Assembly: GCA_947630365.1 (NCBI GenBank)
Contig: CANRHI010000001.1
Location: forward strand, 3,927 to 67,926
DNA: 64,000 bases
Reading direction: 5' to 3'
Source: an uncultured Clostridia bacterium
Lineage (GTDB): Bacteria; Bacillota; Clostridia; Christensenellales; Borkfalkiaceae
Every line of letters starts with the position of its first letter. The first letter of the stretch is position 1. Positions 2,695 to 35,067 of this stretch are shown piece after piece. Position numbers and translations under genes: made by a program. The notes below the pieces were generated by a model. The model had not been told where the DNA came from. It saw only the letters and a program-made list of their open reading frames with translations, and did not search any database.

Positions 2695-3377
2695 AAAAAT
2701 ACACCATCGGGATCATAGACGAGGATTTGAAAGATGTGGATGCCATCAAGCGCACCATATGGTTCAACAAACCCGATCAAGTTGACGAGAAAGAGATCGA
2801 ATTCGTTGATTACAATGTTTTCGTCGAGTCGGACGACATCATAGACGAAATGGTCGAAAAGGCCCTTTGCGCGATCGTGGAGGATGCCATACGGCTCCTC
2901 ATCGTAGATTATAAGATCATTGTCAGCTCGTCTCTCATCGAAGGAAGCGAAATATTCCGGCGGCTGGAAGAAGTCGTGCCGAAATTTCCCATTGTTATCT
3001 TGTCCAATGTTCCCGACACCTGCTATGGCATAAAATTCGTGGACGCCGACAAGGTCTATGCAAAGGGACAATTTTTCAAAATAGAGGAGGGCTATTCGAA
3101 AGAAAAAACCTCAAATCTGTTCCGAAACATGGACCACTACAGAGAACGGAAGGCAGAATCGGCCTTAAAATATAAAATGTGTCTATCCGATTTGGAGAAA
3201 AACGGATATTCCGAGAAAACCTTAAAAGAACTTATCGAAGCGGAGAAATCGCTGGGCGATTTTTGTCCCTTGCAAGAATCCGAGATGGAAAAACAGTTGA
3301 ATGTCGGAGAGCTGAAAGTCGCCGTAGACCTGATCGCAAAAGCCAAAAAATTACTCGGAGAGGAAGATGAAACTTGA
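2691..3377 (+). CDS. Receiver (CheY/REC)-like domain protein with a helical C-terminal extension and no recognisable output domain
   Basis: 228 aa. Its ATG overlaps the upstream stop (ATGA at 2691-2694). It has an acidic pair IGIIDED, a candidate phospho-acceptor LLIVDYK (Asp73, nt 2907-2909), and IVILSN as a beta4 Ser/Thr position. The C-terminal ~90 aa are predicted helical. Confidence 0.5.
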   Translation: MKKYTIGIIDEDLKDVDAIKRTIWFNKPDQVDEKEIEFVDYNVFVESDDIIDEMVEKALCAIVEDAIRLLIVDYKIIVSSSLIEGSEIFRRLEEVVPKFPIVILSNVPDTCYGIKFVDADKVYAKGQFFKIEEGYSKEKTSNLFRNMDHYRERKAESALKYKMCLSDLEKNGYSEKTLKELIEAEKSLGDFCPLQESEMEKQLNVGELKVAVDLIAKAKKLLGEEDET

Positions 3378-4002
3378 GAATTTCAAATCGCACACGATAA
3401 AGAGAAGTCACTTGCCCGCAAAGAAGAATTATCGCGCCTATTTTGAGGATCTGAAAAAGGATTTCGGGGGAAGATGCGCCTATTGCAATTTGCACTTTCA
3501 AAGCATTACGACGCCCTTTGAGATCGATCATTTTATTCCGCAAAAAGAAATAAAGGACCGTAGGCCCGAGTTGATGGCCGAATACAGCAATCTGATTTTT
3601 GCCTGCAAAAAATGCAATATTGCCAAAGGAAGTCAATTTTCGGGAGATCTGTCTCTCGAAAAGCCCACGAATGAATTATTTTACGATCCTGCCGCCGTAG
3701 ATTACAATACGATTTTCTATCGGAACGAGTTGGGACTGATCGATTCGGACGACCCGAAGGGGAGGACGATGATCGGCAGTCTTAAATTATATAGGCCGAT
3801 CCACATTCTCGGGTGGCTGTGCGAAAAATTAAACTTTCTTGCGGACCGACTGGAGAAAAAAATCGATGCGGAAACCAATTCGGAGGTCAGGGAAACGTAT
3901 GAAGAGGCGCTGAACAAAATCAATCAACAATATCGTAAATTCATTCGGTTATTTATCTCGTCCTATAACGACGATCGATTCGATCTTCGTAAGGATACAT
4001 AA
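3367..4002 (+). CDS. HNH endonuclease (PtuB/TIGR02646-like stand-alone HNH)
   Basis: 211 aa. It overlaps the upstream gene by 11 nt. Motifs: CAYCN...EIDHFIP (His55, nt 3529-3531)...N...ACKKCNIAKG, i.e. CxxC...H...N...CxxC. Confidence 0.8.
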   Translation: MKLENFKSHTIKRSHLPAKKNYRAYFEDLKKDFGGRCAYCNLHFQSITTPFEIDHFIPQKEIKDRRPELMAEYSNLIFACKKCNIAKGSQFSGDLSLEKPTNELFYDPAAVDYNTIFYRNELGLIDSDDPKGRTMIGSLKLYRPIHILGWLCEKLNFLADRLEKKIDAETNSEVRETYEEALNKINQQYRKFIRLFISSYNDDRFDLRKDT

Positions 4003-7592: not shown

Positions 7593-8851
7593 TTTCAAAC
7601 GCCACATTGGTTTGCGGGAACAGGGAGAAGAGGGCGGACCTTCGCATCGAGAACGGAAAGATCGCGAGCATCGCGCCTCGGCTCGTCCCGCGGAAGAACG
7701 AGCCCGTTTTGGATTGCGCGGGGTACACCGTGCTCCCGGGGCTCATCGACATGCATGTGCATTTGCGCGAGCCGGGCTTCGAAAAGAAGGAGACCATCGA
7801 GAGCGGTGCGCGGGCTGCCGTCGCGGGGGGCTTCACCGCCGTCTGCTGCATGCCCAACACCAAGCCCGTTGCCGACAACAAGGTGGTCGTCTCCTATATC
7901 AAGCACCGCGGCGAAGAGGTCGGGCTGTGCAAAGTGTACCCCATCGGCGCCATTACCGAGGGGCAGAAGGGGGAAACGCTCGCCTCCATCGGCGGAATGA
8001 AGGCGGCGGGCGCGGTCGCCCTCTCCGAGGACGGCAAGAGCGTGGAAAACAGCAAGCTCATGGCGAACGCCATGCTCTACGCCTCCGACTTCGGGCTCAA
8101 GTGCCTGTGCCATTGCGAGGACAGGGCGCTTGTCGACGGCGGCGTGGTGAACGAGGGGTACTACTCCACCTTAACGGGGCTCAAGGGGAGCATCCGCGCG
8201 GCGGAAGATATCCTCATCGCCCGCGAGATCTGCCTCTCGGAGAGCCTGAACATCCCCGTGCACATCTGCCATGTTTCGACGTTCAGCGGCGTGCAGCTCA
8301 TTCGCGAGGCGAAAAAACGGGGCGTAAATGTCACCGCCGAGACCTGCCCGCACTACTTCACTTTGACGGACGCCGCCATTTCCTCTTTCGATACGAACGC
8401 CAAGGTCAACCCGCCGCTGCGGGAAGAGAAGGACCGCCTCGCCGTGATCGAGGGGCTCAGAGACGGCACGCTCGATTGTATCGCGAGCGATCACGCGCCC
8501 CATCACGAGGACGACAAGAACGTGGAATTCGACCTCGCGGCCTTCGGCATCAGCGGGCTGGAGACGAGCTTCGCCCTCTCCTACACCGCGCTCGTGAGGA
8601 GCGGCGCGCTCACCCTCCCCGCGCTTGTAGGCAAGATGAGCGCCCGCCCCGCCGAAATTTTGGGGCTCGCTGGCGGCAAGCTCGAAGTGGGCGCCCCCGC
8701 CGATATTACCGTCGTCGACCTGGCCGAGAAGTGGACGGTCGACCCCTCGAAATTCCTTTCCAAGGGAAAGAACACGCCGTTTCGCGGCATGGAGGTGTAC
8801 GGCAGCGTGAAGTACACCCTCGTGGACGGCGAGATCAAATTCTGCGGCTGA
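7586..8851 (+). CDS. pyrC: Dihydroorotase
   Basis: DMHVHLREPG metal-binding motif, and the ASDHAPH motif. It overlaps pyrB by 7 nt. Confidence 0.9.
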   Translation: MLISNATLVCGNREKRADLRIENGKIASIAPRLVPRKNEPVLDCAGYTVLPGLIDMHVHLREPGFEKKETIESGARAAVAGGFTAVCCMPNTKPVADNKVVVSYIKHRGEEVGLCKVYPIGAITEGQKGETLASIGGMKAAGAVALSEDGKSVENSKLMANAMLYASDFGLKCLCHCEDRALVDGGVVNEGYYSTLTGLKGSIRAAEDILIAREICLSESLNIPVHICHVSTFSGVQLIREAKKRGVNVTAETCPHYFTLTDAAISSFDTNAKVNPPLREEKDRLAVIEGLRDGTLDCIASDHAPHHEDDKNVEFDLAAFGISGLETSFALSYTALVRSGALTLPALVGKMSARPAEILGLAGGKLEVGAPADITVVDLAEKWTVDPSKFLSKGKNTPFRGMEVYGSVKYTLVDGEIKFCG

Positions 8852-17147: not shown

Positions 17148-17998
17148 TTAGATAATTTGTGAATGAGTTCGGTATTGCACCGGGCTCATTCCATTTAGTT
17201 TGAGGGAGATCCTTGCGTTGTTGTGGTAATCGATGTATTCTTCGAGACAGCGGATGAATTCATCCGCTGTCTCGAACTTCTCACCGTAGAACATCTCTAC
17301 TTTGAGCCGTCCGAAAAAGTTCTCCATCGCACCGTTATCCATGCAGTTTCCCTTGCGGGACATGCTTTGGATGATATTGTGTTCTTTCAGCTGTCTTTGG
17401 CAGCTCTCATGTTGGTATTGCCACCCTTGGTCTGAATGGAAGATAGGGCGTGCTCCCTTCGGCAGCTTCTCAAATAATCCTTTGAGCATTTCTCTTATTT
17501 GTTCCATGTTCGGACTCTTTGAAATAGAATAGGCAATGATCTCTCTGTTGTATAAATCCATGACCGGAGAGAAATACACTTTCTCGTCACCGATATTGAA
17601 TTGGGTTATGTCGGTAGCCATCTTTTCGAACGGCTTCTCCGCGTGGAAGTCTCTCGCAAGAAGATCGTCCGCGATCTTTCCCACTTCTCCCTTGTAAGAA
17701 TGGTATTTCTCGTTCTTGCGCCGTTTCCCTTTCAAACAGAGGCTCTTCATGAGCTTATATACCGTCTTATGGTTCAGAACATAGCCTTTTGCTCTAAGCG
17801 AAAGCTCTATCCTGCGATATCCGTATCTGCCCTTGTTCTCTTGAAAGATCTTCGTGATTGCCGATTTCTCTTCGGCATACTTATCTTTTTCGCTTCGTTT
17901 GAGATGATAATAATATGTGCTGCGAGCGAGACCTGAAATCTTCAATAATATTTTCAGCGGAAATCTCTGCCTTAGTTCCAGAACTACTTGCGCTTTTT
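17148..17998 (-). CDS. IS3 transposase OrfB (rve/DDE integrase core), read in the -1 frame from the slippery site
   Basis: The -1 frame is open from AAAAAG (17993-17998) and reads KAQVVLELRQRFPLKILLKISGLARSTYYY... DDE motifs: ATDITQF, HSDQGWQY and NGAMENFFGRLK. The track starts it only at 17945, which is a TTG. Confidence 0.85.
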
Positions 17999-23907: not shown

Positions 23908-25404
23908 TCAAACGGATCTTGTGAGCGTTTCGTACACCTTCACCATGGCGAAGGTGTCGAGCGCGCAGTATTTCAAAAGGTCGTGCTCTGCCTTTGCCCG
24001 CTGTTCGGCGGGCATATTTTTGAGCTTCGGGAAGAGCTCCTTTGCCTCGCTTCCGTTGTGGACGCCCTCCAATTTGTGATAGTCGAGCTCGGGGTCGTCG
24101 GGGAAGAGGGCAGGAAGAACGCTTTTGATGGAAAACGACCCGCCCATGGCACGGATATAATAGTATCCCTTTTGGAAGGGGACGAGCAGATCTTTGATGT
24201 TCTCCTCGATCTTGAGAAGATGCTCGGAGAGATCGGGGAAGATCGCCGCGAGCTCCTTGATGCGCCCGCATTCGAACCCCTTATTATAGACGAGCACGCA
24301 GACGTCGTCGGGAATGTCGGAAACAAGCCGCTCGGCAAGGGCACGCCTCGGGTCCTCCTCACTTCGCCCCAAAAATTCACGGTGTTCAAGCGTCCCGTTC
24401 GGCTCCCGCAAAATGTGCAGGGAATACTGCACGGGGATCTGTTGATAGGGCTTGGTGCCGACATATTGCGGAATGACGGGTTGCACCGACTCGAAATCGA
24501 GAAAATAGAGGGGATAGGTGAGCGTTTGCAAAAATTCCTCAATGCCCTTTTTGTCGATATGGGCGCCCTTGTCCTCGAGGGCATACTCCACCTGACGGCG
24601 GCGGAGCTCGTTGAGCTCGCTCCCATCCTTCAAGACGTCCTCAAAACCGCAGATGCCCCTTTGATACAGCGCAAGCTTTTTCTTGAAGGCAAGGTCGTAC
24701 AGTCCAAAGACGGACGGCGAAGGCAGATCCCGCGTACAATATCCGAAGAAGGCGCAGGGATAGGGCTTGTTGCACGCCATAGATAAATCGATCGTCGGCT
24801 CTTTCGCCGACGCCATGACCTTTTCCGCCTCCTTCAGGCTCTTTTCTACGTCGGCAAGCTCTTCCTCGACGAGGGGCGTGACCTCGGTGATCTTGAAATA
24901 TTTTTGAAGGTCGAGGACGCCGTCAAAGACATAGCTCGTATCGATCGTGACGAGGTAGACGTTTTTCACCCTCACGCCGCATTTTTCGAGGACATATTTT
25001 TGGAAAGAGGTATCGACGATATAGACGTGTTTGTCGGGCGAGGCGCTGCTCTTGACTTCATAGATATCGTAGCCGTCGCCGTTCTTTTTGAGAATATCGA
25101 CGGCGCAATACAGCCCTTGATGGCCGAAGGACGCTTCGCAGATGATTTCCCTTCCCTCGGCGAGACATTGCTTGGTGAGCTCTTTCATCCTCTCGAGGTC
25201 GAGGCTGCCGTCGGGCTTATACGAAGTCACTTCGACGTATTCGCCGAACAGCCCCATCGCAAGATCGCCCACTTCGTTGCCCGCCGCAAAGCGCGCCTGC
25301 GTCTCTTCGTCGACGACGCATTCCTCGGGCTTATACTTTTTGAGCCACGGAATTTTGGGACACTGCTTGAAATCGCAATACTTGGATTTGCTGAAATAGA
25401 ACAT
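23908..25404 (-). CDS. DUF2779-family protein (Cas4-like PD-(D/E)XK N-terminus plus RNase H/DnaQ-like C-terminus)
   Basis: ATG at 25404 after GGGAGA. N-terminus MFYFSKSKYCDFKQCPKIPWLKKY; also YEVKS, YPLYFLDFES, YNKGFECGRIKELA and YCALDTFAMV. Confidence 0.7.
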   Translation of the reverse strand: MFYFSKSKYCDFKQCPKIPWLKKYKPEECVVDEETQARFAAGNEVGDLAMGLFGEYVEVTSYKPDGSLDLERMKELTKQCLAEGREIICEASFGHQGLYCAVDILKKNGDGYDIYEVKSSASPDKHVYIVDTSFQKYVLEKCGVRVKNVYLVTIDTSYVFDGVLDLQKYFKITEVTPLVEEELADVEKSLKEAEKVMASAKEPTIDLSMACNKPYPCAFFGYCTRDLPSPSVFGLYDLAFKKKLALYQRGICGFEDVLKDGSELNELRRRQVEYALEDKGAHIDKKGIEEFLQTLTYPLYFLDFESVQPVIPQYVGTKPYQQIPVQYSLHILREPNGTLEHREFLGRSEEDPRRALAERLVSDIPDDVCVLVYNKGFECGRIKELAAIFPDLSEHLLKIEENIKDLLVPFQKGYYYIRAMGGSFSIKSVLPALFPDDPELDYHKLEGVHNGSEAKELFPKLKNMPAEQRAKAEHDLLKYCALDTFAMVKVYETLTRSV

Positions 25405-25421
25405 GATTTTTTCTCCCGTGT

Positions 25422-26555
25422 TTACTCTTCTTCGTCGTCCTCGGGCTCCTCGGGCATTGCGTCGAGGGAGTAGATATACTCTTCGGCCTCGGGATGGGCC
25501 TTGATCCAGTCGATCAATTTTTGCTTGTGTGCCACTTTCCAATCGTTGCTGAGATAGTATTCTTTCCCCTTGATCTTCAGCGGTGCGGCGTAATACCGCC
25601 TTCCGCCCTTTTCGGCGAGAACGGGCTCGGTGATCCCGAAAATCACCTTACTCTCCTCAATGGTCGTTAATTTCTCGATCTCCTCATCGGGGACAAGCCC
25701 GCTCTCCAACATATTCCTCAGCGCCGATTTGGCGATTTGTCCGACGAGGAGTGCGCCGTAGGCTGCCGCGTCGGGGACCGCAGCGGTGGGATTGGGAAGA
25801 GCGGAGATCGCGGCGCCCTTGCCCTTCTTCCCCGTTGTTCCCTTCCTACCCGTCCCTTTCGCGCTTACGGGCGGGAGAAAGTAACCGAGCAAGTTGAGCA
25901 ACTGATAGGCTCTCATGAAGAGTTCGGCGGTATCGTGTACCTTGCCGCTCACGATGCGGATGGGGTCGATGACTTCGGTGGAAAAGGCGTTGTTGCCGAT
26001 GATCCTAAAGGTGTAATTCAGTCCCGCCCTATGGAAAAAGTCGTTGAGGAAGTCGATGCGGGACGGCAACAGATTGTACACACCGGGGGAAATTGAGGGG
26101 GATGCGAAAACGATCTCCGCCTCTTCCGCTTCGAAGTATCCATACAGACTCAATGCCGTGCGGACACATTTTTCAACCACTTTGCGGTCAGAGACGTTGC
26201 CGCCGACGCCGTGATAGTTCAGTCCGTTTTCATGAAATGCGACGTCGACGGCATAGTACACGGGTTTACCTTCGCGCAGAGCGAAGCCGATGGCGTCGCA
26301 TTCTCCCTGCTTGATAACTTGATGGAATTTTTTCTCGAGAGCCGCTTTTGGGTCTTTCTCGGCATCGATGTCGAAAATGATTTGATGAAACTTGAATTCA
26401 AATTCCGTTCGGACGTCTTTGAACAGATCTTGCAGCTCCGCCACTCTCTTCAGCGTCCAAGCGGGAGAGGCTTTCCAATTATTTTGGACGATCAAGCACT
26501 CCTTCACATGCCGAAGCCACGAGTAAAACAGGGATTCCGCTATTTCAATTTTCAT
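25422..26555 (-). CDS. Hypothetical protein (possible restriction-endonuclease-like N-terminal domain) co-operonic with the DUF2779 gene
   Basis: 377 aa, ending 17 nt upstream of the DUF2779 start. It has E...GECDAIGF...YYAVDVAFHE acidic beta-strand motifs, a K/G-rich linker, a C-terminal RYYAAPLKIKGKEYYLSNDW module and an acidic tail. Confidence 0.6.
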   Translation of the reverse strand: MKIEIAESLFYSWLRHVKECLIVQNNWKASPAWTLKRVAELQDLFKDVRTEFEFKFHQIIFDIDAEKDPKAALEKKFHQVIKQGECDAIGFALREGKPVYYAVDVAFHENGLNYHGVGGNVSDRKVVEKCVRTALSLYGYFEAEEAEIVFASPSISPGVYNLLPSRIDFLNDFFHRAGLNYTFRIIGNNAFSTEVIDPIRIVSGKVHDTAELFMRAYQLLNLLGYFLPPVSAKGTGRKGTTGKKGKGAAISALPNPTAAVPDAAAYGALLVGQIAKSALRNMLESGLVPDEEIEKLTTIEESKVIFGITEPVLAEKGGRRYYAAPLKIKGKEYYLSNDWKVAHKQKLIDWIKAHPEAEEYIYSLDAMPEEPEDDEEE

Positions 26556-26654: not shown

Positions 26655-27434
26655 CTATGTCTCTTGGATGTGAAGGTCGAAGAACCGCTTGAGGGCCGCG
26701 GCCTCGGGGTAGGTGATCTTCAGATTTTTCTGCAAAAATGCCGTCGTGATCTTCTCTTCGGGGTGACTGCGCACGAGCGAAAGGGCTGCGCTCCGAAGAT
26801 GGGCGGGGATGCGTCTTTTCGGGGCTTCGGTCGGCACTCGGTCGAGCGCATACATGAGCTCTTCTTCGCTCGCGCAGGCGGCGGCGACTTCCGAAAAAGG
26901 CGTGTCCCCCTTGAGAAGAACGACGTAGCGCTCGATATTTCGGGTGTACCGCGGATGGCGCAGGCGGCGGATCCCCCAGGTGATGTGCTCCTCGAGCTCG
27001 GTCGGGTAAATTTGAAGCTCTTCGCAGATCTCGTCGCAGTTTTTTCTCTCGCAGAAGAGCTTCAAAATGCACTCGCGCTCCATGCGTGGAAAGGCATTCA
27101 GGTTGTTTTTCACCCGTTCCTCCGCGCCCGCTTTGACGAGCAGCGGCCCGCCCAAGATCTCTTCGTAAAGATTTTGCGGCCATGCCTTTTCGCACATTCT
27201 CTTGCAATAGTTTTGGAAGGCGGGGATCTCCTCTTCGAACTTGCAAAGGCGCTCTTTCGCAATGTCGTAGAGCGCTTTCTTCTCCCTTTCGTCGCAGGGA
27301 AGCTCGTCGTAAGAGAGCGCGTAGAGGCGGGAGAGCTCTTCGCCCATTGCCTGCTCCCGCCGTCTGCAATAGTACTGCGCGCTCATGCACTCAAGCTCGC
27401 GTTCTCTCAGTTTCAAAGTAATTTCTTCGTTCAT
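26655..27434 (-). CDS. DNA-binding protein: sigma-70 region-4-like HTH plus C-terminal FtsK-gamma-like winged helix
   Basis: ATG at 27434 after AGGAGGA, overlapping the LRR gene stop (ATGA). ERECILKLFCERKNCDEICEELQIYPTELEEHITWGIRRL resembles sigma region 4. ITTAFLQKNLKITYPEAAALKRFFD resembles the FtsK gamma motif. Confidence 0.5.
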   Translation of the reverse strand: MNEEITLKLRERELECMSAQYYCRRREQAMGEELSRLYALSYDELPCDEREKKALYDIAKERLCKFEEEIPAFQNYCKRMCEKAWPQNLYEEILGGPLLVKAGAEERVKNNLNAFPRMERECILKLFCERKNCDEICEELQIYPTELEEHITWGIRRLRHPRYTRNIERYVVLLKGDTPFSEVAAACASEEELMYALDRVPTEAPKRRIPAHLRSAALSLVRSHPEEKITTAFLQKNLKITYPEAAALKRFFDLHIQET

Positions 27435-28297
27435 ACATTTCCTCCTCGATCTCTTCTCTTGCAGTTGAATTTGATCTTGTAGCCGTCGAGCCGGCCGCCC
27501 GCTTTGTCGATCTCGATTGCGTTCCATTCCTCTTCGGTGCCCCCGAAGAGAATGCAACCGTGGTCATCTTCATATTCGGTAAGCGGCGGAAACGCATTGC
27601 GGCCGATATATTTCACGGACTTCGGGACATAGAAGTCGCGCGGGAAGCAGTATTTGTATGTTTCTTCTTTGATGATGAGGACGCTCTCGGGCAGATCGCA
27701 CACGGATGCGACTTGGGAAAAGACGTTGCTCTCGATGACTTTAAGGTCTTTGGGAAGTTTGGTGATGGAAAGCTCGGTGCAGCCCGCGAACGCCGCTTCG
27801 CCGATGGAGACGACGGAGTCGGGGATCTCCAATTCACGGAGAGAGGAACAGCCCGTGAACGCCGCCTCGCCGATGGTCTTTAACGTTTCGGGCAGGCGGA
27901 CGAGCTCGAGAGACGTACAGCCCGAAAAGGCGCCGCTGCCGATGGAGAGGAGCCCTTGCCCGAAGGCGCTGTAGACCAAAACAGCTTTGAGATTCGGGCA
28001 GCCCGCGAATGCCCCGTCGAGAATTTGGGCTGCGCCGAAGATCAAGATGCCTTCGAGAGCCTCATTTCCCGCAAAGGCGAAACTGCCGATGGTATCGCAA
28101 TCGGTGATGCGGAGATGTTTGCATTTGCCCCGATAGCGCATGAGGACATTTTTCCACTCCTCAAGATCGGGCCAAAGACCCGCATGGCCGACTTGGACGT
28201 AATCGCGGACGGCGCACTCGGCGAGATCGTCCGTCGAAAGGTCCCACGACGCGGTGCACTTTTTGGCGCGTTCTTCGATGTTTCTTTTTTCGATCAT
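27431..28297 (-). CDS. Cytoplasmic BspA-type leucine-rich-repeat (LRR_5) protein
   Basis: ATG at 28297 after AAGGAGAAT. No signal peptide. Repeated ...IG..AF.GC..L..(I/V/L).(I/L)P... units (FAGNEAL, FAGCPNL, FSGCTSL, FTGCSSL, FAGCTEL). Confidence 0.75.
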   Translation of the reverse strand: MIEKRNIEERAKKCTASWDLSTDDLAECAVRDYVQVGHAGLWPDLEEWKNVLMRYRGKCKHLRITDCDTIGSFAFAGNEALEGILIFGAAQILDGAFAGCPNLKAVLVYSAFGQGLLSIGSGAFSGCTSLELVRLPETLKTIGEAAFTGCSSLRELEIPDSVVSIGEAAFAGCTELSITKLPKDLKVIESNVFSQVASVCDLPESVLIIKEETYKYCFPRDFYVPKSVKYIGRNAFPPLTEYEDDHGCILFGGTEEEWNAIEIDKAGGRLDGYKIKFNCKRRDRGGNV

Positions 28298-28426
28298 ATC
28301 ATTCTCCTTTTTGATTTTTTCTCGATTTTGCACTTCGGTTTTTTGTGTGTTCTCTCTTTGGATACCCCTTTTTTCGCGGTAGCTTTCACGATTTTTGCAA
28401 TGCGCCCGCCCGCGAACGTCGCACGC

Positions 28427-28435
28427 AGTATAGCA
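28427..28435 (-). promoter_or_regulatory. Extended -10 element TGCTATACT upstream of the LRR operon
   Basis: The minus strand reads TATATGCTATACTGCG, the same 9-mer class as in the 50-bp array and at 29198-29206. Confidence 0.45.
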
Positions 28436-28534
28436 TATAGGCGTAAAAAAATGGGACGTCAAGTCCCATATGTCTGAAATACAAAATTGCAGATGTGAAA
28501 AATTTATCTCCGCGCCGCCCTTTCCCCAAACGTT

Positions 28535-29131
28535 CTACTGCTCAAATTCTTCGGGATAGACGCCGATATACCTTCCATCTCCGAGGAGCGCGATTACTTT
28601 TGCTCCCCCTCGGAGATAAAAGTAGAAATCTTCCACGATCGCAAGATAGCGGTAGAAGGTCGTGCGGGCGATGTGAAATTCGGCACAAAACTTGTTTCTT
28701 TCGACGCCGTCCTCCAATCTGTCGTGCAGGGCGAGAAGCGCGAGATATTTGCGGTTTGAGGGAGTGTCGTGATAGGTGTTGCCGTCCTCGCTGTAGATCC
28801 CGTAGTATTCCCGCATGATCGCAAGCAGCCTGCGGAAATTGGAGTGACTTATCTGCCGCATTTTGCAAAAGGACTCGGGATCCACATGGTCGGGGTCTCC
28901 GTCCGCTTCGAGAGCGAAAAAGAAGAGATTGCGTATTTTTTCGATCGTCGGGGTCTCTTTGATGTGCGCGCGCTCCCCTGCGCGCGTATAGTAAATGTTT
29001 GTTTCGGTGCGATAGGAGAAATCCTCGCCATCGGATATGTCCCAACGGTTGTCCCGATCGTCGCAAACCACATCATGATCTTTGGAGCATTTTTGCTTGG
29101 GATCCGCTTTCAAATACCTTCTCTTTCCCAT
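28535..29131 (-). CDS. Hypothetical protein with two HTH-like segments (putative regulator)
   Basis: 198 aa. QISHSNFRRLLAIMREYY and FHIARTTFYRYLAIVEDFY resemble HTH recognition helices. It is divergent from the repeat array. Confidence 0.5.
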   Translation of the reverse strand: MGKRRYLKADPKQKCSKDHDVVCDDRDNRWDISDGEDFSYRTETNIYYTRAGERAHIKETPTIEKIRNLFFFALEADGDPDHVDPESFCKMRQISHSNFRRLLAIMREYYGIYSEDGNTYHDTPSNRKYLALLALHDRLEDGVERNKFCAEFHIARTTFYRYLAIVEDFYFYLRGGAKVIALLGDGRYIGVYPEEFEQ

Positions 29132-29206: not shown

Positions 29207-29276
29207 TAAAACAAATCGGAATACAAGTGCAGAAATCGACGAAGCCATTCGGGGGGGGGTAGACAGCACGAAACGC

Positions 29277-29650
29277 GTGTGCTATAATGGAGGCGGAAAT
29301 TCGTCCCGGCGCAAAACGGGGGGTGCATGTGCTATAATGGGGGCGCAAATTCGTCCCGGCGCGAAATGGGGAGGGCGTGTGCTATACTGGGAGCGCAAAT
29401 TCGTCACGGCGCAAAACGGGGAGCGTGTGTGCTATAATGGAGGCGCAAATTCGTCCCGGCGCGAAATGGGGGGTGCGTGTGCTATAATGGGGGCGGAAAC
29501 TCGTCCTGACGCAAAACGGGGAGCGCATGTGCTATAATGGGGGCGGAAATTCGTCCTGCCGCGAAATGGGGAGTGCGTGTGCTATAATAGGGGCGGAAAT
29601 TCGTCCTGCCGCGAAATGGGGATGATGTGTGCTATAATGGGGGCGCAACA
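29277..29650 (+). repeat. Exact 50-bp-period tandem array (7 full units plus a partial eighth), each unit carrying GTGTGCTATAATGG (extended -10 consensus)
   Basis: GCTATAATGG (GCTATACTGG at 29381, GCTATAATAG at 29581) starts at 29281, 29331, 29381, 29431, 29481, 29531, 29581 and 29631. Unit consensus: GCTATAATGGGGGCG(G/C)AAATTCGTCC(C/T)G(G/C)CGC(A/G)AAA(C/T)GGGGAG(T/C)GCGTGT. The period is not a multiple of 3. The array ends 49 nt before the nuclease ATG. Confidence 0.95.
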
Positions 29651-29698
29651 AAAGGAAACGTTCGGCGCAAGCCGTTCAAAAAATACAAGGAGGAACAT

Positions 29699-31051
29699 AT
29701 GAAACACAAAACGGCAACTTTAAGTCAACTGCAAAGTTTTGCTCCCGATTTCTCCGAGCTCAAAGCGCAACTGGGGAAATTCAATTTCTTTCGGAGCGTT
29801 CGGATGCAGACGATGGAGACGCGGCACAGCAATGTTCTTGCTTTCCTGTTGGACAGCAAAGAAACACACCGGCTCGGCAATGCTTTCGCACAGGCATTTT
29901 TCTCCGCAGTTTTTGCAAATGCGGGAAAAGAAATCGCCGAACGAATGCAACTGGGTGGAGAGAGGGAAGTAGGCGACTTCTTTCAAAAAGGAGGCTTCCG
30001 CTTCCTCATTGAAAGAGAACACCCGTTTATCGACGAAAACGGAAAAAGACGGTTTATCGACCTTTTATTGATTGCGGAGGACCCGACCTATCCCGTGCTC
30101 ATCTGCATTGAGAATAAGGTTATGTCGTTTCAGCACGACGGTCAATTAGAGGCGTATGAAAAGCATGTTCTGAGTTTGAAAAAATATGAGAATTACAAGA
30201 AGCTGTTTTTGTATCTAACGCCGACGAAGGAAATTGTCGGGGGAGATCAATGGATCAAGATTTCCTATGAGCCTGTCCTTCAAGCGTTGGATGAAACGTT
30301 AATGAAGTACCCGCAAGTCGACAACGAAGTAAAAATCTATCTTACACATTATCAAGAAATTATCAGGAGGGATATTATGAACAACGACCCTATTATCAGA
30401 CAACTTTGCGCGAAATTGTATAATCCGGAGAGAGAAGTTTATCAAACAATTTTCAAGTACATGCTCGGGAGCGAGAAAGAGGCGCTGACCGGTGCAATCG
30501 TCGAAAAACTTGATGCTTTGCGGAATATCGGTGAGATTGAGCTTATCTCCTCTTCAACAAAATCGAATCATACCGAGTTCAAATTTGTGACGAAAAGTTT
30601 GTTGGAGATACTTCCCTACGAGGAATCGCAAAAGAAAACGCGAGTATGGCAGTCCCAAAGCAGAATCGTGTATGAGATTGTCGTTACGAACAGTGACGGA
30701 TTCCCGGACAAGATCACGTTCTGTGCCGTTCTTGTCACAGGGGACAATGCGATCGATAATCAATTCACGCCTCAAATTATAAATATATGCAATGCTCATC
30801 GCAAAGAATTCCGTTTGGGGGATAAACCCATAGAGCGTACCGAGAAACAGAAACACAATAAGCTTCTCACCAAAATATACAACGAAGGCAACGGTTTATC
30901 CGTGCCCGACTCGATTACCGACGGTGAATTCCTTCGGGATTTGGAAAAAGGCATAGATGCCTTTATCAATGATCTAAAGGAGCATCTGGAAACCGTGCTT
31001 AAAAACGAGATAACGAGCACCTCTATGCCGAGCACCCCCGCGCAGCCCTAA
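29699..31051 (+). CDS. PD-(D/E)XK nuclease family protein (PDDEXK_4-like)
   Basis: ATG at 29699 after AAGGAGGA. The N-terminal motif FNFFRSVRMQTMETRHSNVLAFLLDSKETHRLGNAF is typical of this family. Catalytic-core-like RFIDLLLIAED...ICIENKV (D...ExK). Confidence 0.7.
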   Translation: MKHKTATLSQLQSFAPDFSELKAQLGKFNFFRSVRMQTMETRHSNVLAFLLDSKETHRLGNAFAQAFFSAVFANAGKEIAERMQLGGEREVGDFFQKGGFRFLIEREHPFIDENGKRRFIDLLLIAEDPTYPVLICIENKVMSFQHDGQLEAYEKHVLSLKKYENYKKLFLYLTPTKEIVGGDQWIKISYEPVLQALDETLMKYPQVDNEVKIYLTHYQEIIRRDIMNNDPIIRQLCAKLYNPEREVYQTIFKYMLGSEKEALTGAIVEKLDALRNIGEIELISSSTKSNHTEFKFVTKSLLEILPYEESQKKTRVWQSQSRIVYEIVVTNSDGFPDKITFCAVLVTGDNAIDNQFTPQIINICNAHRKEFRLGDKPIERTEKQKHNKLLTKIYNEGNGLSVPDSITDGEFLRDLEKGIDAFINDLKEHLETVLKNEITSTSMPSTPAQP

Positions 31052-31072
31052 CTCCAACCAAGGGAGAACACT

Positions 31073-32023
31073 ATGCCGAAAACATTTTCAGAAGAAATCT
31101 GCTCTGTGGTCGCGGAGGAGAAGGGGTCGCTTACGTCGAAGATCCTCTACGAGATGTGCGACGAGCGGCGCTACCCGTGGGGCGGGGAAGGGCAACTGAA
31201 AGACAAGCTCCGCATCGTCTGCGGGGTGTACGGGCTCATCCTCCGCGAAAACTATCTTTGCTATGCCGCGAAGAACGGGTGGTCGCGCCACAGACGCGTC
31301 GACGTCGAGACGGCGATCGCGGACATGGTTATGGGAAATTCCGCCTACGGTCCTTTCGTGGAAAGACTTGCGGCGTGCAAAGAGAAGTATGCCTTCGACG
31401 GCGGCGCGGGCGATATGGCGCTTCTTCAAAAAAGCGTCGGCCTTGTCTTTGAGCTGAACGATCTCCTCTGCAATGCGGTCAGCGCGTATGACGGGCTCTA
31501 CCGTCAGCCCAAGCGGAACAGGGGCAACTTCTATGCGCTCTCCGCGCGCATGTTGCACCTTCATCGGCCCGAAGCGGTGTTCCCTTACGGAAAGGGCATC
31601 CGCGACGGCATGATGCACTTCCGCAACCCCGTCGGATGTCGGCTCGGAGAAGCCGTCTTGGAGGGCGCGGACAAAGACGAGATACGGGCGGCGTTTTACG
31701 AGGCGTTTACGGGGCTCGGCGCGCTTGCCGAAGGGAAGCCCGATCTCTCGCCCGAATGGATGTATCTTTCGGCGACGGCGTTTTCGTATGCGCTCTGCCG
31801 CTACGTTTCCTCGCACGGCGGTTCGCCCGAGGGGCTCTTCCCGACTGCCCTCTCCGCCGCGGTCGTCGAAAAACTTCAACGGGTACTGACAGAAGAAGAG
31901 ATCGAAAAGATCGCACAGCAGATCCAACGCGATATGCCCATCGAAGAGGCGCGGCTGTACTGCCGCGACGCGGTGGAATTCGAGCAGGTCTTTATGGCGC
32001 GCTGTGCCCAAGACCCAAAATAA
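31073..32023 (+). CDS. Hypothetical protein
   Basis: 316 aa with coding-like composition, 21 nt after the nuclease stop. No motif recognised. Confidence 0.6.
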   Translation: MPKTFSEEICSVVAEEKGSLTSKILYEMCDERRYPWGGEGQLKDKLRIVCGVYGLILRENYLCYAAKNGWSRHRRVDVETAIADMVMGNSAYGPFVERLAACKEKYAFDGGAGDMALLQKSVGLVFELNDLLCNAVSAYDGLYRQPKRNRGNFYALSARMLHLHRPEAVFPYGKGIRDGMMHFRNPVGCRLGEAVLEGADKDEIRAAFYEAFTGLGALAEGKPDLSPEWMYLSATAFSYALCRYVSSHGGSPEGLFPTALSAAVVEKLQRVLTEEEIEKIAQQIQRDMPIEEARLYCRDAVEFEQVFMARCAQDPK

Positions 32024-32024
32024 T

Positions 32025-33134
32025 ATGGACTTCACAAAATTTCTCAACTCAAAGGATATTGCAACCCATCTCCGCCGTATCCGCTATGAATTCACGCCCG
32101 AACAGGCAATGTATGTCATCCATGCGGCGGCGGAGGCCCCTCTCCCCGAGCGGCACGCCGCCTATGAGGAGCTCATCGAGGCGTACCCCGACCACGCCCT
32201 GCGCGAGCGGCGGCAGGGGGTGTTCAAAAATCAGACGGTCGCTTCCTTCCTCCGCACCTATATGGAGCGGGAGAACGCGCTTCTTGCGGAATTCAAGCGC
32301 GACGGAGACGACGCCGTCTGCGTTTACGATTACTTTTCCAAGGAAGACGACGCTTGGTTTCAGGACGGGTACGGCCACCACTCTGTGTATCGCAATTTTT
32401 CCGAGGCCATGGACGACGTGCAATCGGAAAATGCGGACGGGAATATCGCAAAGATTACCGTCACGAAGCAATATTTTTCGGGCAGAATCATCGAGGCGAC
32501 CCTGCTTCCCGACGGCACGTGTCTGAAATTGGACGGGATAAACGGCGAACGGGATGAGGCGTTCCTGCATGCCTTCGATTGGATGTGGGTCAGCATTCCC
32601 ACGCCCTTCAAGTACGGCGACATCCTCGCACCCGTCCGGCAAAACAGGTGGGACCCCGGCACAACAGACGGCTCCGTCAAGGGGATGATCGTCCTCACGG
32701 ATATGGCAACTTGGGGCAGCAAAGAGCTCAAAAAGAACGGCTTCCGCAACGCCAAGACGTCAAATTTTGCTCGCAAGGAGCAAAATTTTGCGGTCCGCGA
32801 CAGGCTCATCGAAAAACACGGGGAATACGGCGACGAGACGGATATGCTCCTCTGCGGCTACTCTCTCGACGGAAGCGATATCTGCTACGACCATACAGAC
32901 CAAAGCTATCTGAACTACGAGCGCTTTCGCGGCGAACTCAAAGGGCATAACAAGATGCTCCGCTCCCTCTCCAATTTCCTCAAGGGGGAAATCGACTTGG
33001 GGCTCATGCTCAGAGCGCACCGCATCATCTGCGCCGAGGAGGAGTGCCGTGAGAAGAGGTCCTTCCTTGACCTCTATACCGACGAGGGCCTAACTCTCGC
33101 GGGACTTCAAAAACGCAATCAACAAAATCAATAA
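32025..33134 (+). CDS. Hypothetical protein
   Basis: The ATG at 32025 lies 1 nt after the upstream stop (an alternative GTG at 32004 would overlap). 369 aa. No motif recognised. Confidence 0.6.
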   Translation: MDFTKFLNSKDIATHLRRIRYEFTPEQAMYVIHAAAEAPLPERHAAYEELIEAYPDHALRERRQGVFKNQTVASFLRTYMERENALLAEFKRDGDDAVCVYDYFSKEDDAWFQDGYGHHSVYRNFSEAMDDVQSENADGNIAKITVTKQYFSGRIIEATLLPDGTCLKLDGINGERDEAFLHAFDWMWVSIPTPFKYGDILAPVRQNRWDPGTTDGSVKGMIVLTDMATWGSKELKKNGFRNAKTSNFARKEQNFAVRDRLIEKHGEYGDETDMLLCGYSLDGSDICYDHTDQSYLNYERFRGELKGHNKMLRSLSNFLKGEIDLGLMLRAHRIICAEEECREKRSFLDLYTDEGLTLAGLQKRNQQNQ

Positions 33135-33149
33135 GAAGGAGAAAAAGCA

Positions 33150-33689
33150 ATGTACGATCCGAGAAGCGAAGAAGTTTTGAAACTCAAAGCGCGCGCCCTC
33201 TGCGGGGAATATCTCCCGAAAGAAGCCGATTCTCGGGGCAACGATCGGGACTTTACGCGGCTCCCCAAGTCTGCCCTCGAAAAAGCGCACAGCGTCAATG
33301 CGGGGAATCGTGTGGACATGACCGAAGAGGAAGATGCCCTGTGGGGCGACCTTCAAGATGCGATCGATGCGCAATTTTTCGATCTGCTCACGGCGTTCCC
33401 GGAGTATTTTACGGGCGATCCCGATGATGAATTTTTGACCTTGGGCAAGGGACTTACCACGCGGACGGGGGTCGCGGAAAAGGTCGAGCGGCAGCGCGCG
33501 CTCGCAACGCCCTCCGAGGCATGGCCGAAGGAGCGGCAAGACGCATACCGCGCACGCATGGCATATCTTTTTGCAAAGCGGCGCATCGACGGGTTAAAGC
33601 GCGAGATCGAGTGGTCGGAGAAATATTTGCGCGCCATGAAAGCCTACATTCTCGAAATGTATCCCGACTGCCTCGGTGAGGATTTTTAA
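33150..33689 (+). CDS. Hypothetical protein
   Basis: 179 aa, with an AAGGAGAAAAAG RBS. Helical and acidic. No motif recognised. Confidence 0.6.
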   Translation: MYDPRSEEVLKLKARALCGEYLPKEADSRGNDRDFTRLPKSALEKAHSVNAGNRVDMTEEEDALWGDLQDAIDAQFFDLLTAFPEYFTGDPDDEFLTLGKGLTTRTGVAEKVERQRALATPSEAWPKERQDAYRARMAYLFAKRRIDGLKREIEWSEKYLRAMKAYILEMYPDCLGEDF

Positions 33690-33693
33690 CACC

Positions 33694-34584
33694 ATGAAAC
33701 GCCGTGTGTTCGCCTACGTTGAGGACAATTTCCAAAAGAACAAGCCCGATAGGGTGCTCGCCATAGACGAGACGGGCGAGCGTTTGTTCTGCTATGAAGT
33801 GGACAACCGCGGGAAGGGAGAAAGCTACGAGGAGCAATTCGTAAACGACAAAGCGCATTCGCCCGCAGCCGTTGCCTTTGCGGCGTTCGAGCGCTTCTGT
33901 AAGGAGGAGTGCGGCATAAAGGATTGCAACGACGAGGTGATCTTTTCGGGGGGAAAGAATATTCCGCCGAAAACCCTCGCTGATTATTTCGAATTTCGGT
34001 TGGGCGGCGCGGACTGGGTGTATGTGTGGGAGATCGGGTTCGAGTACCGCTTCGAGACGGCGCATCTCGAACATCCCATCGGCTTCAAAGAATTCCGCAA
34101 GGTCCATACAGAGGGGCTCACAGAGCCCTACGCCACCCGCGCGCTCTATGCAAAGTACAGAGAACACATTCATAAAGATGCCTACACGGAAGAGGAGCTC
34201 GACCGCATGGAGCAAGCCGTGTTCTCCCGCCTCGATATGGCTTACCGCCGTCGGCGCAGCAGGTCGGATCCGAGTATCTATATCGCCGAAACCTGCGCCG
34301 CGATCTACCGAGGCGACCAAGCACGTTTTCGTCGCGTTGTGGAAAGGATCGTCGCCGATCACGCAAGAAGGCGTTCCAAAAGGAAACGTTGGGTGCTGCA
34401 ATACATCCTCGAGACGATCGCCGACAGCATCTATTGCGACGGAGAGATCGACCTCGCTTCGCTCGATGAGGAAGAAAAAAAGCCGCCCCTCGAGCGGAAG
34501 GAGTATGCGATCTTCGCGGGGCTTTCCCCCGATGCGCTTCCCCTCGTAAAAGAATCGATCGAGGAATATGTAAATTGGAAATAA
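33694..34584 (+). CDS. Hypothetical protein
   Basis: The ATG at 33694 lies 4 nt after the upstream stop (alternative GTG at 33676). 296 aa, with an Arg-rich segment RRRRSRSD / RRRSKRKR. Confidence 0.6.
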   Translation: MKRRVFAYVEDNFQKNKPDRVLAIDETGERLFCYEVDNRGKGESYEEQFVNDKAHSPAAVAFAAFERFCKEECGIKDCNDEVIFSGGKNIPPKTLADYFEFRLGGADWVYVWEIGFEYRFETAHLEHPIGFKEFRKVHTEGLTEPYATRALYAKYREHIHKDAYTEEELDRMEQAVFSRLDMAYRRRRSRSDPSIYIAETCAAIYRGDQARFRRVVERIVADHARRRSKRKRWVLQYILETIADSIYCDGEIDLASLDEEEKKPPLERKEYAIFAGLSPDALPLVKESIEEYVNWK

Positions 34585-34587
34585 ACT

Positions 34588-35067
34588 ATGGACTCGCGCA
34601 TTTTGTTTTTGGATTACGACGGCGTCGTCAACACGCCGATGTGGAACGAGAGGGGCACAAAGGTCTCCTACGGCTTTCCCGAGGACGGGAAAGTCAACAA
34701 CTTTCAGGCGGTGCAGTGGGTCTCGCAGTTTTGCCAGAAGTGCAAATTCGATATCGTCGTCACGAGCTCCTGGCGGGAAGAGAGGAATTATCGGGAATGT
34801 TTGACGGAGGGCGGCTTGCGCGGGAATATCGCCATCGCGGGCGCGCTTCCCCTCGACGAAACCAAATCGCGCGGGGACCTCATCCGCGCCTATCTTCTTT
34901 CGCACCCCGAGATCAAGTATTACATCATCGCGGACGATGAGGAGGACCTTCTTCCCGAACAGCTTCCGCACCTCATCAAAACGAACGCCTGCTACGGCTT
35001 TTTGGAGCCCGAATACAAACGCTGCGTCGCACTGTATATGAAGTTTCAGAGCGGGGTGAAAGAGTAA
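34588..35067 (+). CDS. HAD-superfamily phosphatase-like protein (HAD_SAK 'Swiss-army-knife RNA repair' type)
   Basis: Motif I FLDYDGVVN, motif II VVTSSWR, SRGDLIRAYL, and motif IV-like YIIADDEEDL. 159 aa, starting 3 nt after the upstream stop. Confidence 0.6.
   Translation: MDSRILFLDYDGVVNTPMWNERGTKVSYGFPEDGKVNNFQAVQWVSQFCQKCKFDIVVTSSWREERNYRECLTEGGLRGNIAIAGALPLDETKSRGDLIRAYLLSHPEIKYYIIADDEEDLLPEQLPHLIKTNACYGFLEPEYKRCVALYMKFQSGVKE

Follow-up and report, generated by a model that had tools for sequence, protein, structure and literature searches.

Does a row of six tightly packed genes, opened by a nuclease and closed by a phosphatase, make up one dedicated system, or was it put together from parts with different histories? 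The question was raised by the genes at 29699-35067 on the + strand of a 64,000-nt stretch of DNA from an uncultured Clostridia bacterium (contig CANRHI010000001.1), hereafter called the window. An earlier note on this DNA had seen here a nuclease, four proteins without recognisable domains and a phosphatase of the RNA-end-healing class, and had suggested a nucleic-acid conflict or repair cassette, possibly derived from a phage. The six genes are designated g1 to g6, and related loci carry the letter L and a number. Relatives were compared by tblastn and by local hidden Markov model (HMM) searches with the window proteins. The operon is a mosaic, in which an exchangeable g1 and an inserted g4 are combined with an older block, g2-g3 and g5-g6, under purifying selection. 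Its anatomy and evolution are read directly; its function we infer, and there we lean, by a little more than an even balance, towards an operon of a conflict island of the WYL/DUF2779 type with an anti-invader role.

Anatomy of the operon and its mosaic conservation

The list of open reading frames (ORFs) bore out six packed genes on one strand, separated by gaps of 21, 1, 15, 4 and 3 nt. The first, g1 (29699-31051, + strand, 450 aa), encodes a PD-(D/E)XK nuclease of the PDDEXK_4, PDC-S26 type with an uncharacterised C-terminal half. It is followed on the same strand by g2 (31073-32023, 316 aa) from a very small family, by g3 (32025-33134, 369 aa), a member of the family here called G3, and by g4 (33150-33689, 179 aa), an acidic protein and an inserted cassette between g3 and g5. 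The product of g5 (33694-34584, + strand, 296 aa) was modelled with an N-terminal RNase H/RuvC-like alpha/beta domain (approximately residues 1-120) and a helical C-terminal domain, and the conserved block closes with g6 (34588-35067, + strand, 159 aa), a stand-alone HAD phosphatase (HAD_SAK_2). Shine-Dalgarno-like sequences precede g1, g2, g4 and g5; g3 and g6 have none, and their starts lie only 1 nt (the ATG of g3) and 3 nt after the preceding stop, which suggests coupled translation, probably so for g3. Terminator-like sites within the operon did not exceed their frequency in shuffled sequence. The arrangement of the genes is one of co-transcription and, in part, of translational coupling. 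The ratios of nonsynonymous to synonymous substitutions (dN/dS) against the L086 orthologues were 0.28 for g2, 0.19 for g3, 0.19 for g5 and 0.10 for g6, and because this range of 0.10-0.28 reflects purifying selection, all four are real genes.

Two general statements made about these genes could be kept in part. The cluster had been called AT-richer than the core genome, which is true of g1 only, with a guanine-cytosine (GC) content of 0.44; g2-g6 are at 0.55-0.60 and the whole window is at 0.58, so that g1 is the only AT-rich gene of the operon. The absence of recognisable domains in the four middle proteins held for Pfam, PHROGs, PADLOC and NCBIfam, where nothing significant was found for g2-g5, and for the PDB sequences, where profile searches with g2, g3, g4 and g5 gave no match. 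It has to be tempered for g5, the model of which has an RNase H-like N-terminus with weak Foldseek support, and for g3, which is over its full length homologous to a PolC-like C-terminal domain. The families of g1-g5 were all mutually unrelated in hhalign comparisons, and exact look-ups of g2 and P0001 returned no record. An Rfam scan of the window gave no family, and no tRNA genes were found in it. The families of g2-g5 are new; the candidate family of g1 and the domain family of g6 were already known. The locus yields four rare unannotated protein families, one of them with a confident model but no detectable structural relative.

The mosaic was most clearly seen at the DNA level. Homology to L006 and L086 by blastn covers exactly 31059-33111 and 33689-35058, i.e., g2+g3 and g5+g6, and breaks at gene borders. 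At the protein level g2, g3, g5 and g6 are 73-89% identical to the closest relatives, which are metagenome-assembled genomes (MAGs) of rabbit-gut Clostridia, with g6 at 78-89% in the relatives. The nuclease g1 is 30% identical to its positional counterpart while g2, g3, g5 and g6 are 78-89% identical, and against the same-position PDDEXK_4 genes of the relatives it reaches 22-32%. The close clade, in which g3 is 73-81% identical, has the layout [WYL]-[DUF2779]-[small protein]-[LRR]-PDDEXK_4-[g2]-g3-[insert]-g5-[g5 paralogue]-[HAD], where LRR stands for a leucine-rich-repeat gene. L086 has it in fully co-directional form, with WYL/WCX, DUF2779, proteins of 177 and 204 aa, PDDEXK_4, g2, g3, g5, the tandem paralogue g5', HAD_SAK_2 and then a housekeeping GAPDH gene. 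In this clade g3 and g5 always occur together, usually with g6 and often with g2. The order g2<g3<g4<g5<g6 was kept wherever these genes occur. Outside the close clade the partners of g3 are quite different. In L116, with a g3 that is 49% identical, the order differs, and the genes include PDDEXK_4, WYL/WCX, DUF2779, g3, an acetyltransferase and a Sigma70_r4 gene. One set of genes is thus met again in differing arrangements, yet no gene is a fixed neighbour of the nuclease. The island of L116 lies between two genes for 153-aa resolvases (L116:183-644 and L116:10453-10914) and may be invertible or mobile.

Two of the genes are variably present. The g2 family comprises 7 clusters among 5.8 billion proteins, with no detectable relatives elsewhere, and its homologue in L087 is 44% identical. 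In L001 (9841-9999) and L117 (6092-6250) g2 is reduced to a remnant, a 52-aa ORF joining the first 34 and the last 19 residues by an in-frame internal deletion; it is degenerate in L008 and absent in L011 and L019. In the relatives g2 is dispensable. The g4 family is even smaller, with 5 representatives only among 1.84 billion proteins, and the acidic g4 protein is rated as helical from a reading of its sequence alone. On either side of g4, the DNA homology to L086/L006 breaks off at 33111 and begins again at 33689. Between g3 and g5, no gene is present in L001, L006 and L019, an unrelated gene of ~459 aa is present in L008, L009 and L011, and g4 is present in the window only. By these borders g4 is an inserted cassette, placed at a site that other genes occupy in relatives. 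Its rare homologues all come after PDDEXK_4 genes, in the order DUF2779, PDDEXK_4, g2-like gene, g4-like gene in L087; AAA/M41, DUF2779, WYL, PDDEXK_4, g4-like gene, PTS_2-RNA in L089; and PDDEXK_4, g4-like gene, start of a g5-like gene in L091. In L089 the first gene of the island (2058-3326) encodes an FtsH-like AAA+Peptidase_M41 protein (PADLOC IetA-like, 1.9e-20), and the gene after the g4 homologue (8113-8649) an RNA 2'-phosphotransferase (PTS_2-RNA).

The last gene had been called a HAD_SAK-type phosphatase, and this was confirmed by Pfam HAD_SAK_2 (71.8 bits, cut-off 27.5, 9.7e-20) as well as by the motifs DYDGV (LFLDYDGVVN, the DxD of motif I), TSSW and ADDEED (IIADDEED, the DD of motif IV). 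T4 Pnk-phosphatase offers an analogy for phosphatases of this family. In the operon g6 is the only gene with a PHROGs match (phrog_1818, 7.6e-20), and homologues with 28-32% identity were found in 204 phage records, many of them from Klebsiella, Enterobacter, Citrobacter and Escherichia phages with genomes of ~170-180 kb; a single-sequence PDB search with g6 gave no match. No RNA ligase, kinase or RtcB is encoded in g1-g5 or the flanking genes, nor was one found in the window, where nothing speaks specifically for RNA-end healing; among the islands a PTS_2-RNA gene was seen in L089 only. One could still imagine a dedicated six-component system, in which the nuclease, an end-healing phosphatase and four partners damage or repair nucleic acid, especially RNA, in conflict. 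The tight one-strand packing with coupled starts, the kept gene order, the naming of HAD_SAK_2 for RNA-repair proteins and the RNA 2'-phosphotransferase of L089 would all suit it. We consider it improbable, since no locus besides the window's own sequence carries all six genes, and the expected co-conservation, the lack of which the earlier note had named as refuting its idea, is thereby lost for the six genes as a unit. In addition, g1 is replaced by the 22-32% identical alleles, g4 accompanies 1 of 83 g3 loci, g2 is deleted or absent in the four loci L001, L008, L011 and L019, and the ligase, kinase or RtcB of such a system is missing from the operon. Distant relatives point in the same direction: PDDEXK_4 homologues from metagenomes, found by a sub-alignment search, had none of g2-g6 alongside, and distant g3 genes are without g1, g2 and g6 and, in all but L016, without g5.

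The nuclease slot and its promoter array

The assignment of g1 to the PDDEXK_4-like nucleases, made from the motif IDLLL...IENK, agreed with Pfam PF14281 (PDDEXK_4), which it matched with 81.7 bits over a cut-off of 22.3 (8.2e-23). The PADLOC model PDLC04972 (PDC-S26) was matched at 6.4e-60 over model positions 1-388 of 397, i.e., full-length, and the catalytic residues D121, E138 and K140 within the motif are invariant in nine island homologues. No close relative of g1 was found in the metagenome collection, a single-sequence PDB search gave no match, and g1 was found in one phage record. A low GC content is common for genes in this position: PDDEXK_4 genes lie 5-13 GC points below their neighbours in most islands checked, with little or no deficit in L089 and L019.

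Between the repeat array and g1 lies a conserved 5' leader (29646-29698, + strand; TTCGGCGCAAGCCGTTCAAAAAA...). Its ribosome-binding site, AAGGAGG, stands 7 nt ahead of the ATG. The leader is also present at L009:7705-7756 and L086:8657-8706, ahead of PDDEXK_4 alleles that are only ~30% identical. By blastn, positions 29575-29712 of the window match L009 7630-7770, and the leader together with the first codons of g1 is conserved with L009. By its composition and borders g1 is a foreign, exchangeable cassette, swapped in between the conserved leader and the start of g2. The leader contains a possible CGGC-GCAA-GCCG hairpin in TTCGGCGCAAGCCGTTCAAAAAA, and L009 has a second copy of the leader motif upstream of its promoter units.

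The array itself, a tandem repeat of a 50-bp promoter unit at 29275-29645 on the + strand (Tandem Repeats Finder: period 50, 7.4 copies, 86% matches), stands directly upstream of g1, and the operon is indeed downstream of a repeat array as had been noticed. It holds eight TGTGCTATAAT boxes (extended -10, TRTGnTATAAT), 50 bp apart and all directed at g1; the first -10 box has TAGACA as -35 element at 17 nt, and in a promoter scan 29260-29288 scored 11/12 with TG. Homologous promoter units number two in L009 and none in L086. The array looks like an amplified promoter, placing eight predicted promoter copies ahead of the operon. A CRISPR-like array was considered for the 50-bp repeat and ruled out, because the units are contiguous and free of spacers and each of them has a promoter box.

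Within the window's clade PDDEXK_4 always precedes members of the g2-g5 set, and the gene directly after it varies by locus, being g2, the g2 remnant, g3, g4 or WYL. This variation bears on whether the locus might be a toxin-immunity or polymorphic-effector array, with g1 as a toxic nuclease and the small families downstream as immunity or antitoxin genes in tandem. Directly downstream of the nuclease a different gene is found from locus to locus, so that none can serve as its fixed cognate immunity gene. Moreover, domains for secretion or delivery, such as LXG, Rhs or CdiA, were absent from the proteins scanned, and g3 and g5 are large (296-369 aa), g5 looking enzyme-like in its model. Such an array is therefore very improbable to us, even though the families are small, lineage-specific and variable, g5 and g3 have tandem paralogues, the nuclease alleles are strongly divergent, and the c41 protein, with the nuclease's C-terminal module only, suggests domain swapping. 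The ~459-aa gene of the g4 slot (L008:11126-12505, L009:11079-12428 and L011:11141-12544) has only its C-terminal ~150 aa in common with PDDEXK_4/PDC-S26 proteins (local HMM 1e-10 to 1e-11), which points to one C-terminal module shared among different N-terminal effectors.

The G3 family, the g5 model and links to replication proteins

The g3 family comprises 34 clusters among 5.8 billion proteins. A scan of species-representative genomes with the g3 alignment gave 79 loci, nearly all in MAGs of gut Clostridia and the closest from rabbit gut. The conserved motifs are MDxxxFLNSKDIA, IPTPFKxGD and GDxxDM, and the invariant residues include D199 of the second and D270/D273 of the third. The AlphaFold2 (AF2) model was confident, with a predicted local distance difference test score (pLDDT) of 87 and a predicted template modelling score (pTM) of 0.83, and a Foldseek search with it against PDB and BFVD returned noise only. 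The family was placed by sequence. Residues 2-361 of g3 matched residues 771-1096 of a 1113-aa PolC-like protein of L054 (BLASTP 2e-25). The polymerase cluster comprises 17 ORFs, in at least 8 of which the G3 domain forms the C-terminal ~330 aa of a protein of ~1100 aa. This PolC::G3 protein carries PHP, Pol III alpha and finger domains and is most similar to PolC (7.6e-108). In eight ORFs the catalytic motif of PolC, EPDIDLNF, is kept along with PTPFKKGD of G3; they lie in L024, L027, L037, L046, L048, L062, L063 and L083 (e.g., L063:7634-11002), and the genes are flanked by DnaB_C-like ATPases, an AAA ATPase, WYL and DUF2779.

Partners were counted near g3 in 83 non-redundant loci of the family. 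WYL was the most frequent (35/83), followed by DnaB_C-like ATPases (26/83), the AAA ATPase of PF00004 with AAA_lid_6 (22/83) and DUF2779 (19/83). The genes of the operon itself were less common, PDDEXK_4 and g5 being found at 8 loci each, g2 at 5 and g4 at 1. Tandem g3 paralogues are common. In L016 (1257-6510) an ADP-ribosylglycohydrolase and then a diverged homologue of g5 (37% identical) come after three of them, and the link between g3 and g5 thus persists at greater divergence. No description of a module of G3 and PolC type was found in the literature searched, and the tie of g3 to PolC-type fusions and to DnaB_C-like and AAA ATPases offers a way into an apparently undescribed gene module of gut Clostridia. 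Tentatively, and as a proposal we think rather unlikely, G3 may define a new module of an undescribed PolC-type-polymerase system composed of a WYL regulator, the Cas4-like DUF2779 nuclease, a DnaB_C/KaiC-like ATPase, the PolC::G3 fusion and the AAA ATPase, serving immunity or damage tolerance in gut Firmicutes. The window operon would then be a polymerase-less derivative, in which G3, the RuvC-like g5 and the HAD phosphatase cooperate with an exchangeable PD-(D/E)XK nuclease and the promoter array raises the operon dose.

The g5 family has 19 clusters only. Its AF2 model (pLDDT 88) shows the N-terminal order b1-b2-b3-a-b4-a-b5, then helices, and the best Foldseek match was RuvC of Lactococcus phage 67 (4ktw; E 0.022, prob 0.99). 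Other top matches, namely the C-terminal half of UvrC, retroviral integrase cores, EndoV, RNase HII and poxvirus resolvase, all have the RNase H-like fold. In 19 sequences D11 (YVEDN, at the end of strand 1) and D80/E81 (NDEVI, strand 4) are invariant. We regard g5 as a probable RNase H/RuvC-like nuclease, in which these acidic residues may be catalytic. A tandem paralogue, g5', is present in relatives.

Together, these families raise the question of whether the operon belongs to replication and repair rather than to immunity, being what is left of, or derived from, a module for replication, recombination or damage tolerance with a WYL regulator of the damage type. The parts would be a Cas4-like exonuclease, the PD-(D/E)XK nuclease, a RuvC-like resolvase, an end phosphatase and a polymerase-docking domain. 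G3 as the C-terminus of PolC-type polymerases, with eight ORFs keeping EPDIDLNF, speaks for it, as do the RecA-fold DnaB_C/KaiC-like proteins and AAA ATPases adjoining PolC::G3, the modelled resemblance of g5 to Holliday-junction resolvases and the resolvase genes bounding L116. DNA-damage-answering WYL regulators and the imuA-imuB-dnaE2 cassette provide a loose parallel. We nevertheless judge this origin unlikely. No polymerase, helicase or ATPase is encoded in the window or in the close relatives, and neither an integrase nor a relaxase stands alongside. Of 2.9 million viral contigs only 1 carries the g3 family, and in plasmids g3 had no match. Finally, replacement of nuclease alleles and variability in the style of cassettes are more typical of conflict loci.

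The island, its proposed function and comparison with known systems

The region is the right-hand operon of a lineage-restricted island of gut Clostridia, whose recurring genes are a BrxR-type WYL/WCX regulator, the Cas4-like DUF2779, Sigma70_r4-like, LRR, PDDEXK_4 and G3-family genes. DUF2779 together with WYL are the recurring anchor genes of this island type, and the WYL/WCX regulator (BrxR-type) is present in L001, L086, L089, L116 and L117. To the left of the operon and divergent from it, all on the - strand, the window has five further genes. The nearest (28535-29131) encodes a resolvase-type helix-turn-helix (HTH) protein of 198 aa, a candidate local regulator that matched Pfam HTH_7 at 5.6e-05, with 23.6 bits against a curated cut-off of 23.8, and had no homologue in related loci. 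It is followed by a BspA-type leucine-rich-repeat protein (27431-28462; Pfam LRR_5 2.5e-31), and by tblastn LRR genes adjoin PDDEXK_4 in L006, L009, L011, L019 and L086. A protein of 300 aa (26655-27557) is weakly Sigma70_r4-like, being 27% identical over 89 aa to L001 7869-8135 (Pfam Sigma70_r4), and has no Pfam match itself. The 377-aa protein at 25422-26555 had no Pfam or PADLOC match and no homologue in related loci. At the far end stands the DUF2779/Cas4-like PD-(D/E)XK nuclease (23908-25542; Pfam DUF2779 5.2e-46, Cas_Cas4 4.9e-05; PADLOC Cas4 4.2e-09), 75% identical to the copy in L015. A simple inversion of this left arm relative to L086 was rejected; the left-to-right gene order is the same but the strand is opposite, and the arm is therefore a separately organised operon.

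A prophage module was likewise rejected. The earlier note's idea was to fail if the middle proteins matched ordinary prophage structural or replication proteins; they are not prophage structural proteins, with no phage families among them and near-absence from viral contigs. Its alternative, a phage-derived cassette, gained no support, as only g6 had a PHROGs match and the DNA of the whole operon matched no phage; beyond a single one of the 2.9 million viral contigs, the g3 family had no presence there.

Defence genes within 10 kb of g3 homologues include type IIG restriction-modification (R-M), AbiE, Cas13d, dGTPase, AriA and others. One g3-family gene has a Cas13d gene (PADLOC 2.9e-181) no more than 4 kb away, and an AbiE pair and a dGTPase are also near. 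Elsewhere in the window, a trio of low-GC genes (0.43-0.53) at 187-4002 encodes an 835-aa GHKL-type ATPase, a 228-aa unknown protein and a PtuB-like HNH nuclease (PADLOC PtuB 1.5e-19), and resembles a Septu-like defence candidate in its own right, in which the ATPase is a different one. An IS3-type transposase (rve, HTH_21) at 17148-17945 on the - strand lies in a low-GC patch ~6 kb left of the DUF2779 gene.

We come back to the conflict island as the reading to which we give a little more than half of our confidence. The anti-invader role is argued from the PDC-S26 match, the company of Cas4-like and WYL genes, the replacement of nuclease alleles and the nearby defence genes; BrxR-type WYL regulators are found alongside defence systems (PMC9122601). 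In general terms, a cassette for nucleic-acid conflict or repair fits with PDC-S26, DUF2779, the WYL/WCX regulators of the relatives, the RuvC-like g5 and the RNA 2'-phosphotransferase of L089; as a six-gene unit it could not be upheld. The island would act against invading DNA. In such a scheme g1 may cut DNA by itself, g5 would be a second nuclease for branched or hybrid substrates, and g6 may strip phosphates from nucleotides or from the ends of nucleic acids. As for g3, it might be a non-catalytic or novel-enzyme module that docks onto replication-type proteins, because its relatives are fused to PolC-type polymerases and stand beside DnaB_C-like and AAA ATPases; g2 and g4 would be optional accessories.

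Several observations weigh against this reading. PDC-S26 is a computational candidate only, and no experimentally shown function for it was found in the literature searched. The window has no WYL gene and no ATPase. Around g3 homologues, PADLOC matches at distances of up to 4 kb did not outnumber those at 6.5 kb or beyond, and this near-versus-far comparison gave no usable enrichment of defence genes. Every Foldseek match of g5 had E >= 0.02, none of them significant, with TM-scores of at most 0.45. The kept order of g2 to g6 is compatible with a degraded larger system rather than independent cassettes, and the mixture of PolC, DnaB_C, Cas4 and RuvC traits suits a module for replication, recombination or repair just as well. 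A defence-type island with unknown genes is a familiar pattern. What this locus adds is a clear case of a conflict-type operon assembled gene by gene, with the nuclease allele swapped, accessories inserted or lost and the promoter amplified.

Five known systems invite comparison. With RuvC/RNase H-like nucleases (e.g., PDB 4ktw) the g5 model shares the order beta-beta-beta-alpha-beta-alpha-beta and acidic residues on strands 1 and 4; it differs in lacking a significant E-value and a match to any sequence profile, and in an extra helical domain of ~175 aa. Among the 'Swiss Army Knife' RNA-repair HAD phosphatases (Pfam HAD_SAK_2), g6 lies well above the cut-off and keeps the DxD and DD motifs, but it is a stand-alone protein of 159 aa without a ligase or kinase partner, and stand-alone proteins like it are common in phages of ~170-180 kb. 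The damage-inducible polymerase cassette imuA-imuB-dnaE2 is an analogue of the g3 relatives, not of the window, with a RecA-fold ATPase, a Pol III alpha-type polymerase and a stress-type regulator in common. The polymerase of the g3 relatives is, however, PolC-type and not DnaE2, their regulator is WYL and not LexA, and they have no Y-family ImuB, while the cassette has no counterpart to their G3 domain, AAA ATPase and DUF2779; none of this is present in the window.

Closer to the locus are the defence islands regulated by BrxR-type WYL/WCX proteins (PMC9122601), as the islands of the relatives open with a WYL+WCX regulator, followed by nucleases and variable cargo. The window departs from them in having no WYL gene and a small divergent HTH protein instead, and its cargo, g2-g5, belongs to no described defence system. 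The nearest counterpart of all is PDC-S26, a single-gene 'phage defence candidate' of PADLOC v2 in Pfam PDDEXK_4, which g1 matches from end to end with the D...ExK residues kept. Related PDDEXK_4 genes occur without g2-g6, as expected of a single-gene unit. The difference is that g1 heads a co-directional operon, in a conserved slot filled by very different, mutually replacing alleles.

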